A DNA stretch of 64,000 bases from Escherichia coli (GTDB taxonomy: Bacteria > Pseudomonadota > Gammaproteobacteria > Enterobacterales > Enterobacteriaceae), in assembly GCF_011045215.1 (NCBI RefSeq), contig NZ_CP049201.1, one strand, 5' to 3'. A program made the position numbers. Shown here in pieces: positions 61,101 through 64,000 of this stretch (positions within the stretch are counted from its first letter, which is position 1; the number at the start of each line of letters is the position of its first letter).

Positions 61101-64000
61101 AAACAACGGCGATGTGTTTTACATCACCGGTGATGTCCACCACAATCCGGTGTGGCGTTACCGGCGATGATGACGAAACATTACGGCGCAGAGCGCTTTT
61201 CTGACTGCCACATCTGATTTCGGGTGTGTTTCGGCAAGGTTGTTCAGTAAGGCATTCCTTCGTAAAATCAGCCTGTTTTTTGCACGACGGAAACCGGCAG
61301 CCATGAAAATCTGTCTTTATCATACCCTGAATCCAGAGATCATCCCGGGCTATAAAAAATTTGCACAGGCCATTGCGGCTGATAACTTTGTTCAGGCTGA
61401 TGTTCGTAAAATTGATACCAATCTTTACCGTGCACGGCTCAGTATCCGGGATCGATTGCTGTTTTCGCTGTATCGTTATCATGGTGAAACTGTCTGCCTT
61501 GTACTGGAATATATTCGCAATCATGCCTATCACACTTCACGTTTTCTTCGCAAAAATGTGGTTATTGATGAAGACTGCGTACAACAACAACCTGTGCCGG
61601 ATCCTGTTGATATAGCGACTGAAACACTGACGTATATCAATCCGTCTCACGGGCGTTTTCATCGTCTGGATAAAATGTTGTCCTTTGATGATGAGCAGCA
61701 GGCGTTGTACGAACATCCGCTACCGCTGGTGATTGTGGGATCTGCAGGGAGTGGTAAGACGGCGCTGGTACTGGAAAAAATGAAGCAGGCCGCGGGTGAT
61801 ATACTGTATCTCAGCCTCTCCACATTTCTGGTGGAAAAAGCACGAACGCTTTATAACGCGTCGGGGGAAGGGAGTGATGCGCAGAATATTGACTTTCTGT
61901 CACTGACGGAATTCCTGGAAACCCTGCGCATTCCGGAAGGCCGGGAGGTGACCTTCAGGGCATTCAGCGACTGGCTGCCCCGCAACAGGACCACCGTTGC
62001 GCTGGGGTCTGCCCATACCCTGTATGAGGAGTTCCGGGGTGTGATTGGTGCGGCCGTTTCCGGCAACGGACCACTGTCCCGGGAGGTGTATCTGTCGCTG
62101 GGGGTACGGCAGTCGCTCTACAGTATGGATGATCGCCCGACGGTCTATGCCCTGTTCGAACGTTATACGGCATGGCTGAAACAGTCGCGTCAGTATGACA
62201 GTAATCTGCTCAGTCATCAGTACCTGCCGCTGGCAGAGCCCCGTTACGATGCCATTTTTGTCGATGAAGTTCAGGATATGACGCCTGTTCAGTTGCAACT
62301 GGTACTGAAAACATTGCGTCATCCCGGCCAGTTTTTGCTTTGTGGTGATGCCAGTCAGATTGTTCATCCCAGCTTTTTCTCATGGAGTTCACTTAAGAGC
62401 CTTTTTTTCCGGCAACACCAGGGGAACAATGCTGCCATTAATATCCTGCAGGCGAATTACCGTAACGGGCACCATATCACCGCACTGGCTAACCGTCTGC
62501 TGAGACTCAGACAGGCCCGGTTCAGCGCCATTGATCGGGAAAGCCACCATTTCGTCAGAAGCTGTGGTCAGACGGAAGGCGCAGTCCGGTTACTGGAAGA
62601 CCGGGAAGAAAACCGACAGGAGCTGAACACCAAAACCTCACGTTCGAATCGGGTGGCGGTCATTGTGATGCATCCGGAACAGAAAGTACAGGCACGTTGC
62701 TGGTTCAGTACACCGCTGGTTTTTTCAGTTCAGGAGGTTAAGGGGCTGGAATACGAAACGGTGATCCTCTACAACATGGTCAGCGGTGTCCGGCAGGCGT
62801 TTGATGATATCTGTGAGGGGATTTTTCTGGCGGATCTTGAGGGTGAGTCCCGTTATTCCCGTCCGCGGGACAGGCAGGATCGTTCAGCGGAAATCTACAG
62901 GTTTTTTATCAATGCGCTGTATGTTGCGTTCACCCGTGCCACGCACAACGTGTATCTTGTTGAACAGCAGGTGGCGCATCCGTTGTGGCGCCTGCTTGCG
63001 CTCACGCATCAGGAAGAGCAACTGAATCTGCAGGAGGAGATTTCCAGCCGTGATGAGTGGCAGAAAACTGCACATTTGCTTGAGAAACAAGGGAAGCAGG
63101 AGCAGGCGGATACCATCCGCAGCCGGCTCCTGCAGCAGTCTGAAGTACCGTGGCACATCATTACCGCAGAGGAAGCCCGGCAGTGGAAAGAACAGATCCT
63201 CGCAGGCACGGCCAGTAAAGCCACACAACTGCAGGCGCTGGAGTACAGTCTGATTTACTCCCTGTTTCCGCTGTATAATGCGCTGTACCGGGAAGATTTT
63301 AAGCCCACCAGACAGTCCAGGGCGAAGAGTCTGCTGTTGCTGGAGCAGAAATATTTCCGGCCATACTCGGTGAATAACCCGGTTGCGGTGTTGCGGGATA
63401 TTGAGCGTTATGGTGTTGATCACCGCTCGCCGTTTAATCTTACTCCGCTGATGTCAGCAGCCCGGGCAGGCAACATTGCACTGGTTCAGTTACTGCTTGA
63501 CCGTGGTGCAGATCCCTTGCTAATCGGTAATGACGGGCTGGCAGCTTATCATCACGTCCTGTCAGCGGCGGTCAGTACGCCCCGTTATGCGCAACAGAAA
63601 AGTGCGCAGTTGTATACCCTGCTGAGACCAGAAAGTCTCTCACTGCAGGTGGAAGAACGGCTCATCAAACTGGACAACCGGCAGATGGCAATGTTTCTGG
63701 TGCTCCTGATGCAGGCACTGTTCTTCACGCATCTGGGGAGTGCTCTGGCCTTTTCGGAAGCTTTCAGTGCGGCACGACTGGCAGAGTGTGTGGCTCACCT
63801 TCCTGAAGCGTTGTTGCCGGAGCGCCGCAAAAGAAGGAATTATATCAGCAGCCAGCTTTCTCAACATGAGGTTAACAGCAAAAACCCTTATGGAAAAAAG
63901 CTCTTTCTGAGACTGAATCATGGGCAGTATATTCTTAATCCGGGGCTTAAAATCAGACAGGGTGACGTGTGGTGTGCGGTTTATGAGTTGCAGTCACCGG

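Follow-up and report, generated by a model that had tools for sequence, protein, structure and literature searches.

A 949-residue Orf182-family protein of Escherichia coli with a UvrD-type helicase motor, ankyrin repeats and predicted RelE-like and winged-helix domains

Introduction

The 64,000-nucleotide stretch of Escherichia coli DNA analysed here, referred to below as the window, closes on a long reading frame without a stop codon. An earlier note had assigned this frame to a large UvrD-like helicase with ankyrin repeats, encoded in an island, and had named it a candidate for defence or anti-defence. The locus raises the questions of whether the frame is part of a real gene and, if so, what its product might do for the cell or for the element that carries it. 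The first can be answered plainly: the gene in which the window ends is real and intact, and its uncharacterised product has 949 residues. The second is approached through the domains, neighbours and distribution of that protein.

Results

Reading frame and gene ends

On translation, the forward strand is open for 899 codons, from position 61303 to the last nucleotide of the window (Table 1). The chance of 899 stop-free codons is roughly 2e-19, i.e., about (61/64)^899. The frame is intact, with neither the misread stop nor the frameshift that the earlier note had named as possible sources of error, and it is absent from the ORF listing because it runs past the window end. The proposed truncation also holds. 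In the nearest relatives, which include the copy on plasmid A of E. coli C5, the complete gene begins at the same ATG and encodes 949 residues; therefore the window misses just the final 50, and the stop codon lies 150 nt past the window end. The C5 copy shares 99.7% nucleotide identity with the window gene, while that of E. coli RM8082 shares 99.3% but is frameshifted. Some RefSeq records employ a TTG start 63 nt upstream (window position 61240). All 52 aligned homologues begin at a Met matching position 61303, and the equivalent Met is the annotated start in EC958. Scans for promoters and terminators around the gene gave results no better than those from shuffled sequences.

Table 1. Features of the Orf182-family gene and of the module upstream of it; positions are those of the window.
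Feature	Residues	Position	Strand	Basis
Orf182-family reading frame	1-899 of 949	61303-64000	+	No stop in frame; 99.3% amino acid identity to the complete C5 plasmid copy
N-terminal domain, predicted RelE/YoeB/YafQ/HigB (BECR) toxin fold	1-82	61303-61548	+	Predicted structure, two methods
Linker	83-125	61549-61677	+	Lower model confidence, pLDDT 65-77
SF1A (UvrD/PcrA/Rep-like) helicase/ATPase core	about 126-560	61678-62982	+	Motifs, Pfam, Foldseek, partial PADLOC core matches
Walker A		61738-61761	+	Within helicase core
Motif II (DEVQD)		62263-62277	+	Within helicase core
All-helical region ending in about two ankyrin repeats	583-775	63049-63627	+	Pfam, PDB ankyrin matches, model helices
Pfam Ank match	703-751	63409-63555	+	Ank_5, E value 2.5e-5
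C-terminal domain with predicted winged helix-turn-helix	about 776-895	63628-64000	+	AlphaFold model
Island backbone module upstream of the helicase gene, not a functional partner		58673-61204	+	Annotations of near-identical loci
YagK/YfjJ-like		58673-59239	+	Annotation of near-identical loci
Hypothetical		59467-60072	+	Annotation of near-identical loci
AlpA/excisionase-like HTH		60141-60374	+	TIGR01764 excisionase match
YagK/YfjJ-like, directly upstream of the helicase gene		60641-61204	+	Annotation of near-identical loci

Domain architecture

The AF2 model of the full-length protein (pLDDT 85, pTM 0.84) predicts one polypeptide in which a RelE-toxin-like fold is followed by a UvrD-type helicase motor, then by ankyrin repeats and a winged helix. 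The motor belongs to the SF1 (UvrD/Rep/PcrA-like) superfamily by both motifs and fold. The sequences invariant in an alignment of 52 homologues are GSGKT at positions 149–153 (Walker A, motif I), DEVQD at 321–325 (motif II), GDxxQ at 348–352 (motif III), YR at 386–387 (motif IV), KGLE at 480–483 (motif V) and VAxTRA at 541–546 (motif VI); motifs I, II, III and VI are those that the note had described as visible. The note had recommended the profiles UvrD_C, AAA_19 and ANK; on the core, the Pfam families matched are AAA_19, UvrD-helicase and UvrD_C_2, all of them weakly. Each of the 52 members of the family matches UvrD-helicase at E ≤ 0.1. Foldseek aligns the core with PcrA, UvrD and Rep (E values 5e-11 to 1e-8; about 640–700 aligned columns) as a two-RecA-domain fold. 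Its structural neighbours also include HelD and Upf1/Aquarius, and there is a weak NCBIfam match to HelD. The ATPase/helicase motifs are intact, and ATP-dependent translocation or unwinding is predicted from them.

The C-terminal ankyrin repeat that the note had described is recovered by the Ank, Ank_2 and Ank_5 profiles of Pfam at residues 703–751 (E value 4.6e-5 for Ank and 2.5e-5 for Ank_5). Ank_2 is matched at E ≤ 0.001 in 36 of the 52 members and at E ≤ 0.1 in all of them, and the PDB profiles matched by the repeat region are those of ankyrin-1/2 and DARPins. The protein is thus an ankyrin-repeat protein, with only about two repeats. The region that follows is modelled as a three-helix bundle with a beta-hairpin wing, the arrangement of a predicted winged helix, and includes a conserved RRKRxxYISS..NE helix and a KLFxRLxRGxYxxNP wing. 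Residues 900–949, beyond the window, are the final helices.

The N-terminal domain

Pfam has no match in residues 1–130 or 760–949, and sequence profiles detected neither the RelE-like domain nor the winged helix. The N-terminal region of about 135 residues, set aside in the earlier note as being of unknown type, accordingly stays without a sequence profile, but the model now gives it a putative RelE/YoeB-type fold. In the RelE/ParE superfamily, the type II toxins RelE, YoeB, YafQ and HigB are BECR-fold ribosome-dependent mRNA endonucleases, and the catalytic residues of this RNase branch are K52, K54, R61, R81 and Y87 in RelE and E46, R65, H83 and Y84 in YoeB. From predicted structure, two methods returned this fold, in which a small antiparallel sheet packs against N-terminal helices, for residues 1–82, and Cami1 (PDB: 8phj_X) is a weak structural neighbour. 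No other part of the protein is as conserved as this domain, whose mean column identity is 67% vs 58% for the whole. Its near-invariant residues are K36, R43, K/R45, R51, E69, H74, Y76, S79 and R80, the first seven of which occur in 132–138 of 139 cluster representatives sharing at most 50% identity with one another. The conserved set was compared with the catalytic residues of RelE and YoeB by manual inspection of motifs, pairwise alignments being no better than shuffles.

None of the sequence-level searches recovered this relationship. The Pfam families ParE_toxin, YoeB_toxin, HigB-like and Gp49 were not matched at E ≤ 10 in the protein or in sets of 52 and 41 family members, NCBIfam gave no RelE/ParE-type match for the domain at the same threshold, and PDB HMM searches with two N-domain profiles gave none either. 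Comparison by hhalign with YoeB alone and with a YoeB alignment, the latter composed of 120 homologues that are too alike (Neff 1.4), returned a probability of 0, and Smith-Waterman alignments to RelE and YoeB did not beat shuffles. Because all of these tests failed, the RelE-like assignment is a fold-only one; and because it derives from predicted structure alone, the mapping of catalytic residues onto RelE and YoeB is manual and unproven. The fold may instead be ParE-like (gyrase-directed) or serve a non-catalytic role. In the loci compared, no conserved small ORF that might encode a cognate antitoxin is present upstream or downstream.

Island context and neighbouring genes

The island location claimed for the gene is borne out by near-identical loci and by comparison with CP4-57 of strain K-12. 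In E. coli the gene occupies a variable cargo slot of CP4-57-type islands, downstream of a backbone module with a weak Pfam YagK_YfjJ_C match. The region after yfjJ in K-12 CP4-57 holds AbpAB and RnlAB, and other E. coli carry MADS1/SNF2/Abi/AIPR genes, a dGTPase or CdiBA (CDI) downstream of the same module. Cargo unrelated to defence is found in the slot as well (H-NS, ProQ, sul2 and CDI). AbpAB (YfjK/YfjL) and RnlAB, which lie after yfjI-yfjJ, are positional equivalents of the window gene but encode unrelated proteins. AbpB is also a helicase (annotated as putative helicase YfjK), but AbpA is its partner, and it showed no sequence match with the window protein.

The earlier note had placed part of the gene, and any partner genes, outside the window. 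The first part of this stands, as 50 residues lie outside; the second does not, since clustering of 1061 neighbour ORFs from 87 loci in diverse taxa revealed no recurring partner. The clusters consisted of generic ABC-ATPase, histidine-kinase and response-regulator paralogues, and a pair made up of a SWIM protein and a protein of about 900 residues was near the gene at 5 loci only, 4 of them in gammaproteobacterial MAGs. The gene stands alone, with no partner gene. Two candidates were considered and rejected: the 187-residue protein encoded upstream in E. coli is unrelated to the 184-residue protein upstream in Nitrococcus, and the 50-residue ORF that lies downstream of the gene in C5 and in RM8082 is conserved nowhere else.

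Distribution and mobility

Relatives are present in at least 440 species from several phyla, with a patchy taxonomic distribution. Across phyla they are about 50% identical from end to end, are uniform in length and have many invariant residues throughout. Members are widespread among sulfur oxidisers with a free-living habit, methanotrophs and Nitrospirae and occur in many environmental Proteobacteria. Genomes usually have one copy. In E. coli, only 115 of 5426 complete genomes (2%), ST131 among the lineages represented, have the gene, and some copies are pseudogenes. For this reason it is not a housekeeping helicase, the outcome that would have overturned the earlier proposal; it is accessory and mobile in this species. 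A total of 130 plasmids carry it, 103 of which are Shigella pINV, and in these 103 the gene is intact; nearly all sampled Shigella virulence plasmids are represented. Its neighbours in Salmonella, in Nitrococcus and in a MAG include integrases, IS elements or TA genes. A number of chromosomal contexts, those in Halomonas, Pistricoccus and Roseospira among them, look ordinary. In Nitrococcus, an OLD-like AAA_15/AAA_21 gene is located about 6 kb from the helicase gene. Searches of 50,697 phage records (INPHARED) and of IMG/VR revealed no homologue, and PHROGs contributed a generic DNA-helicase family only. Since phage records are without a homologue, the anti-defence role once considered for the protein is unlikely.

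Relationship to Orf182 and to known systems

The orthologue in Shigella flexneri is Orf182 of pWR100/pWR501 (WP_010921718), which has 89–90% amino acid identity over the full length. It comprises 949 residues from the ATG, or about 111 kDa with the upstream start, and its gene has a GC content of 50.9%. On pINV it is situated between IS elements and shf-rfbU-virK-msbB2, whereas the window copy is in a chromosomal CP4-57-type island. The protein is made in Shigella, where it was detected by mass spectrometry, and it was also a low-confidence match in the secretome (PMC5658099). An Orf182-beta-lactamase fusion (Orf182-bla) was neither secreted nor translocated by S. flexneri, and served as a negative control (PMC5658099). 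The published description is limited to the ankyrin repeat and to the absence of T3SS secretion, and does not include the helicase or RelE-fold domains. A literature search on ankyrin/UvrD-helicase defence proteins and RelE-helicase fusions found nothing on the family beyond that study.

The motor fold and all motifs are shared with the SF1A helicases UvrD, PcrA and Rep, including GajB (Gabija), AbiO and Nhi, but the accessory domains (RelE fold, ankyrin repeats and wHTH) differ from those of UvrD, GajB, AbiO and Nhi. A search of PADLOC-DB v2.0, a check that the note had advised, identified no full-length system and no family beyond the generic helicase core, either for the protein or for nine longer relatives. 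The best matches are partial ones to the cores of GajB, RTasHel (DRT-associated helicase), AbiO and Nhi, led by PDLC00123 (GajB; E value 3.4e-12), which aligns residues 312–455 with profile positions 174–312 of 540. HMM matches to defence helicases in general span only about 80–140 residues (motifs II–IV or V–VI). Beyond the core, the nine longer relatives gave only an ankyrin-type match to PDC-M72A. NCBIfam helicase models score 18–33 bits vs cutoffs of 400–965 bits. An identity with GajB was considered and rejected: no full-length profile is matched, and there is no adjacent gene for the nuclease partner GajA (OLD-family ATPase-TOPRIM), as no neighbour is conserved among the 87 loci and the genes beside the E. 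coli copies belong to the island backbone.

The predicted N-terminal domain also differs in setting from RelE, YoeB, YafQ and HigB, which are free toxins of 85–95 residues with an antitoxin; here it is fused to an 870-residue protein with no antitoxin gene. A parallel is Cami1, a CARF-RelE fusion of type III CRISPR systems in which a RelE-family RNase is joined to a sensor. In both proteins a RelE-family domain (a predicted one in the window protein) is covalently attached to sensor-type domains, but in the window protein the place of CARF is taken by an SF1 helicase together with ankyrin repeats and a wHTH, and there is no CRISPR association.

Discussion

A stand-alone conflict protein

We tentatively read the product as a conflict protein that works alone and moves horizontally, with one polypeptide uniting a sensor and motor with a toxin-type effector; its single gene would most likely be an anti-phage or abortive-infection system. 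We give this reading a little less than an even chance. The SF1A UvrD-like ATPase and the winged helix would engage nucleic acid, whether foreign or replicating DNA or RNA, while the role of the ankyrin/helical module would be to bind a partner protein or to keep the protein auto-inhibited. The RelE-fold domain would then be the output, leading to RNA cleavage and growth arrest; by analogy with RelE and YoeB, the target might be mRNA on the ribosome. A defence phenotype, a trigger and an RNase activity are what we infer for the protein. The domain architecture, the active-site-like conservation, the stand-alone gene, its mobility, the cargo slot and the absence from phages argue for a conflict role. 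Against it, about 50% identity across phyla and a uniform length are more conservation than is usual for an arms-race gene, several chromosomal contexts (Halomonas, Pistricoccus and Roseospira among them) look ordinary, the E. coli slot accommodates non-defence cargo, some copies are pseudogenes, and no PADLOC or NCBIfam family was matched above the generic helicase core.

Should the proposal hold, current defence catalogues would be missing a single-gene immune or conflict system that is widespread. It would place a helicase sensor and a RelE-type RNase effector in cis, and would extend to a helicase chassis the theme of toxin-antitoxin components turned to immunity, of which Cami1 is the CRISPR example. 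For Orf182, which is among the last large ORFs of pINV to lack a function, it also offers a hypothesis concrete enough to be tested. Should defence be the wrong answer, this is still a conserved uncharacterised helicase family with two predicted domains that are invisible to sequence profiles.

Alternative explanations

An accessory factor for nucleic-acid housekeeping or quality control, unconnected with immunity, is unlikely but by no means negligible. In such a factor the RelE fold, which may be non-catalytic, would tether a UvrD-like motor to the ribosome or RNA, and the winged helix would tether it to DNA; its site of action would be stalled transcription-translation or replication complexes, much as HelD, UvrD and Mfd act on RNA polymerase. 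The uniform length, the cross-phylum identity and the invariant residues throughout are consistent with it, as are the mostly single copies, the ordinary contexts in three genera, the structural proximity of the core to HelD and Upf1/Aquarius, and the weak NCBIfam HelD match. A quality-control role fits poorly with a gene present in 2% of E. coli genomes and patchy across taxa, whose enteric copies reside on islands and plasmids beside integrases or IS elements and have in some cases decayed to pseudogenes, and which has no conserved housekeeping neighbour or operon.

The same domains could be combined in a surveillance enzyme coupled to translation, of a type that has yet to be described in bacteria; we consider this quite unlikely. 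With the RelE-fold domain docked in the A site of the ribosome, the SF1 helicase and winged helix would read nucleic acid engaged by the ribosome or RNA polymerase, and ATP-driven remodelling would then license mRNA cleavage. Such a protein would correspond, within one polypeptide, to eukaryotic Upf1 together with an endonuclease, and would serve in immunity against phage transcripts or in the clearance of stalled expression complexes.

Also quite unlikely is a cis-regulated addiction or stabilisation module that would favour retention of islands and of plasmids such as pINV. In place of a separate antitoxin, the remainder of the polypeptide would restrain the RelE-fold toxin. The toxin fold predicted for the N-terminal domain, with no antitoxin gene adjacent, would suit such a module, and so would the intact copies on 103 Shigella pINV, where many TA systems are nearby (VapBC, CcdAB, YacA), and the TA genes near the Nitrococcus copy. 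However, with no labile antitoxin the logic of classical post-segregational killing is not evident, many copies lie on chromosomes away from any recognisable element, and the active helicase, the winged helix and the ankyrin repeats are left without explanation.

Rep and PcrA serve rolling-circle replicons, and the core is Rep/PcrA/UvrD-like. In E. coli, moreover, the gene is directly downstream of a YagK/YfjJ-like gene, which might suggest a replication or transfer helicase for a CP4-57-type island with inovirus-gpII-like (YagK/YfjJ) initiators. This is very improbable, and is largely refuted by distribution. The part of the backbone module from 59467 to 61204 is present in 2918 E. coli genomes vs 115 for the helicase, and therefore the island element does not need it. 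Copies from outside the enterics are not linked to gpII-like genes, the pINV copy, flanked by IS elements and shf, is an orphan, and the RelE-fold, ankyrin and wHTH domains would be unexplained.

Ankyrin proteins of Legionella and Coxiella act in eukaryotic host cells, but a secreted virulence effector of this type is scarcely tenable here: the ankyrin repeat, the position between T3SS effector genes of the Shigella virulence plasmid and the low-confidence secretome match are outweighed by a GC content of 51%, unlike that of T3SS effector genes, by a family common in free-living sulfur oxidisers, methanotrophs and Nitrospirae, and by the behaviour of the Orf182-beta-lactamase negative control, with which T3SS secretion in Shigella was already refuted (PMC5658099).

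Gene extent and domain architecture

Translation of the window gives 899 stop-free codons at 61303-64000 on the + strand, a frame missing from the ORF listing because it runs past the window end. Among complete E. coli genomes, the closest copies are found on 'plasmid A' of E. coli C5 (99.7% nt identity) and on the RM8082 chromosome (99.3% nt), the latter being frameshifted. The complete C5 copy has 50 further codons and, read from the ATG equivalent to window position 61303, encodes an intact protein of 949 aa, with 99.3% aa identity to the window protein. Although some PGAP annotations start at a TTG 63 nt upstream, the EC958 record uses the same ATG, and the equivalent Met is the first residue in 52/52 aligned homologues from distant taxa. 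Thus, the earlier note was correct in placing here a gene of at least 899 aa cut by the window edge, and little of it lies outside. The finding is genuine, and the architecture (see table) is richer than reading the sequence alone had shown.

Pfam yields weak matches to AAA_19, UvrD-helicase and UvrD_C_2 and places an ankyrin repeat at residues 703-751, in agreement with the helicase core and C-terminal ankyrin repeat recognized previously. The SF1 signatures GSGKT (149-153), DEVQD (321-325), GDxxQ (348-352), YR (386-387), KGLE (480-483) and VAxTRA (541-546) are all invariant in an alignment of 52 sequences, which upholds the reading of motifs I, II, III and VI. The AlphaFold2 model built on this alignment is confident (mean pLDDT 85, pTM 0.84), and its core best matches PcrA, UvrD and Rep, followed by FBH1, HelD, AdnAB and Upf1-like helicases. 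The protein belongs to the SF1 UvrD-like superfamily. Here and in all 52 homologues, residues 1-130 and 760-949 are without a Pfam match, so that the N-terminal region is indeed of no type recognizable by sequence. Two relatives of 1133-1138 aa (P0090, P0097) are extended at the C-terminus by a region with a possible, precomputed Pfam match to PF03695.

Features of the helicase protein, the window and the comparison loci
Feature	Position	Strand	Remarks
RelE-fold domain, predicted	residues 1-82		fold in predicted structure
Linker	between RelE-fold domain and SF1A motor
SF1A motor	residues about 126-560		motifs and structure match
Helical region ending in about two ankyrin repeats	residues 583-775
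Winged helix	residues about 776-895
Terminal helices	residues 900-949		outside window
WYL-domain regulator, YfjR-like	window 48960-49640	-	PADLOC WYL, E value 2.6e-19
YfjP/YeeP-type GTPase	window 49843-50727	-
376-aa ORF	window 50912-52042	+	AT-rich (GC 0.34 vs about 0.50 around); adjoins island GTPase gene
Backbone module	window 58673-61204		YagK/YfjJ, hypothetical gene, HTH gene (AlpA-like), YagK-like
Backbone module, part	window 59467-61204
Orf182 copy, pWR501	L011 9001-11850		equivalent to window 61303-64000
Orf182 copy, pSS046	L012 7001-9850		equivalent to window 61303-64000
Helicase copy, RM8082	L002 14938-17849		frameshifted or truncated
Helicase copy, EC28	L007 12001-14846		frameshifted or truncated
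SIR2-family, ATP-binding and KTSC-domain proteins, C5 plasmid A	L001 1353-4649		outside window
OLD-like ATPase, Nitrococcus mobilis	L004 16867-18384		DUF2813/AAA_15/AAA_21

The N-terminal domain

Foldseek, an independent method, ranks toxins of the RelE/ParE superfamily first for the N-terminal domain; the top match is YoeB/ParE 6n90 (E value 3.5e-3, probability 1.0, TM 0.55 on target), followed by YoeB, YafQ, HP0892, RelK, ParE2 and HigB. The domain would be RelE-like by fold only. No RelE-like sequence match was obtained in Pfam, or in NCBIfam at E<=10; PDB HMM searches with two profiles of the domain and an hhalign comparison with YoeB were negative, and in Smith-Waterman comparisons the domain scored no better against verified sequences of RelE and YoeB than shuffled sequences did.

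Conservation within the protein is highest in this domain. Its polar cluster is unusually constrained among 139 cluster representatives (<=50% identity), namely K36 (138/139), R43 (134/139), K/R45 (132/139), R51 (138/139), E69 (135/139), H74 (138/139), Y76 (133/139), S79 (129/139) and R80 (121/139). On visual comparison, LYRA[RK]L, [DN]RLLF and NHAY resemble YKIKL and GYRLVY of RelE and RYHY of YoeB. These toxin motifs contain the catalytic residues K52/K54, R61 and H83/Y84, and we hypothesize that the motifs of the domain map onto them. The domain may instead act like ParE or serve for binding only. A search of 1.84 billion representatives with a profile of the domain yielded 636 proteins, of which the best 150 are all full-length members or fragments of the same helicase family; the domain is therefore practically confined to this family.

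Distribution of the family

The family is both large, with thousands of matches in protein databases, and uniform. The best 120 matches are mostly of 940-1000 aa, apart from nine shorter fragments (541-919 aa) and four longer proteins (up to 1138 aa), and about 100 of them are roughly 50% identical to the query; named hosts include Halomonas, Endozoicomonas, Nitrococcus, Roseospira, Salmonella, and Lentisphaeria and Chloroflexi MAGs. When one genome per species was scanned, at least 440 relatives appeared, in taxa including Chromatiales, Methylococcales, Thiotrichales, Vibrio, Alpha-, Beta- and Zetaproteobacteria, Nitrospirae, Thermodesulfovibrionales, Lentisphaerae and Trueperaceae. A homologue was present neither in 50,697 phage records nor in IMG/VR.

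Gene contexts are entirely different from taxon to taxon, often with integrases, IS elements or TA genes nearby. The earlier note had placed any partner genes beyond the window edge; clustering of 1061 neighbour ORFs from 87 loci revealed no recurrent neighbour except generic paralogues and a pair of a SWIM-like and a ~900-aa protein (5 loci, four of them from gammaproteobacterial MAGs). The small ORF downstream of the gene in E. coli is not conserved. The helicase gene has no partner gene.

Island context in E. coli

Megablast detected the gene in 115 of 5426 complete E. coli genomes (98 at >=80% coverage). It lies in an island, as the earlier note had proposed, and the islands are of the CP4-57 type, with YfjI/DUF3987, YagK/YfjJ, an AlpA-like HTH, YeeP/YfjP GTPase, DUF932, antirestriction, RadC and CbtA/CbeA genes. 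The gene directly follows the backbone module, part of which (window 59467-61204) is present in 2918 of the 5426 genomes (1214 at >=80% coverage). The helicase is therefore cargo rather than backbone, and the distribution is not that of a housekeeping helicase. Several E. coli copies are frameshifted or truncated (RM8082, EC28, clusters P0013-P0016); thus, some lineages show decay of the gene, whereas others, among them the window, C5, EC958 and Shigella pINV, keep it intact.

In seven sampled genomes without the helicase (compare L097-L103), the slot downstream of the module holds ECs1377 and CdiBA (two genomes), ProQ, H-NS and dGTPase (two), or, in one genome each, ECs1377 with MADS1/SNF2/Abi/AIPR, ProQ with IS and sul2, and ProQ with ECs1377 and IS. 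The cargo at this site varies between strains. In CP4-57 of K-12, yfjI-yfjJ are followed by abpB/abpA (annotated anti-bacteriophage protein) and rnlAB, so that the location fits a conflict/defence cargo slot, although the contents are mixed.

Orf182 of Shigella virulence plasmids

By tblastn of PLSDB, the protein is encoded on 130 plasmids, 103 from Shigella and 13 from Escherichia; the sampled Shigella plasmids are pINV virulence plasmids, and the Shigella copies are intact, with 89-90% identity to the window protein. In pWR501 and pSS046 the copy is bordered by IS elements and ospG at one end and by shf-rfbU(capU)-virK-msbB2(lpxM) at the other. With an upstream start the pINV product is about 111 kDa, and the GC content is 50.9%, both agreeing with Orf182 of pWR100. 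Orf182 was detected by mass spectrometry, an ankyrin repeat being the only feature remarked, and a 140 kDa Orf182-beta-lactamase fusion was neither secreted nor translocated by the T3SS (Pinaud et al. 2017, PMC5658099). Thus, the protein is made, and a reading as a virulence effector secreted by the Shigella T3SS is ruled out. No experimental data on the family were found in the literature beyond PMC5658099. Retention on a pseudogene-rich plasmid suggests that Orf182 is under selection.

Comparison with known systems and proposed function

Comparison with PADLOC-DB v2 gave only partial helicase-core matches, and the protein belongs to none of the catalogued defence families. The matches span some 80-140 residues near motifs II-IV or motif V-VI, to the GajB, DRT-associated helicase, AbiO and Nhi models, nine longer relatives likewise match partially, and NCBIfam scores (18-33 bits) are far under the family cutoffs. 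GajB of Gabija shares such a partial match, but identity with it was rejected, as the match is not full-length and a GajA gene is lacking. The nearest functional analogies may be the single-polypeptide helicase-nuclease defence proteins and Cami1, a RelE-family RNase fused to a CARF sensor and a weak structural neighbour in the Foldseek list; the likeness to the latter would lie in a RelE-family RNase joined to a sensor. The same domain combination was not found described anywhere, in a family that is widespread, mobile and uncharacterised.

The reading we prefer, with slightly less than even confidence, is a stand-alone sensor-effector conflict protein, and a role in defence is plausible. On this reading, a nucleic-acid cue would be sensed by the helicase together with the winged helix, the ankyrin/helical part would serve either for binding a protein or for auto-inhibition, and the output, RNA cleavage and growth arrest, would come from the RelE-fold domain. 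An accessory RNA/DNA quality-control helicase, associated with the ribosome or RNAP, would accord with the strong conservation of the family and the ordinary-looking contexts in some taxa, and we consider it unlikely. A cis-regulated addiction module is more doubtful still, and an island replication helicase is very improbable, given how many more genomes carry part of the module than the helicase. A secreted effector is refuted by the Orf182 fusion and can practically be dismissed. The remaining probability falls to functions of some other kind.

Other genes near the helicase homologues

The WYL regulator and GTPase of the window are typical backbone genes of the CP4-57 family. The 376-aa ORF next to the GTPase gene, with no NCBIfam or PADLOC match, is another putative cargo gene. 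A protein of about 350-370 aa, SWIM-zinc-finger-like by eye, is encoded in four of five loci, one from Salinicola peritrichatus and four from gammaproteobacterial MAGs (L016, L018, L020, L024, L025). A ~900-aa protein precedes it in L024 and L025, and L016 has one ORF of 1319 aa in its place. These neighbours lie downstream of the helicase homologue, at a distance of up to about 6.5 kb (up to about 3 kb in four of the five loci). Such an arrangement is restricted to a lineage and not family-wide. In Nitrococcus mobilis, the OLD-like ATPase and many TA genes lie <8 kb from the helicase homologue, so that the region may be a variable one, rich in defence or TA genes. In C5, some 10 kb upstream of the helicase, the SIR2-family, ATP-binding and KTSC-domain proteins, with IS fragments on the flanks, look like a candidate defence module.
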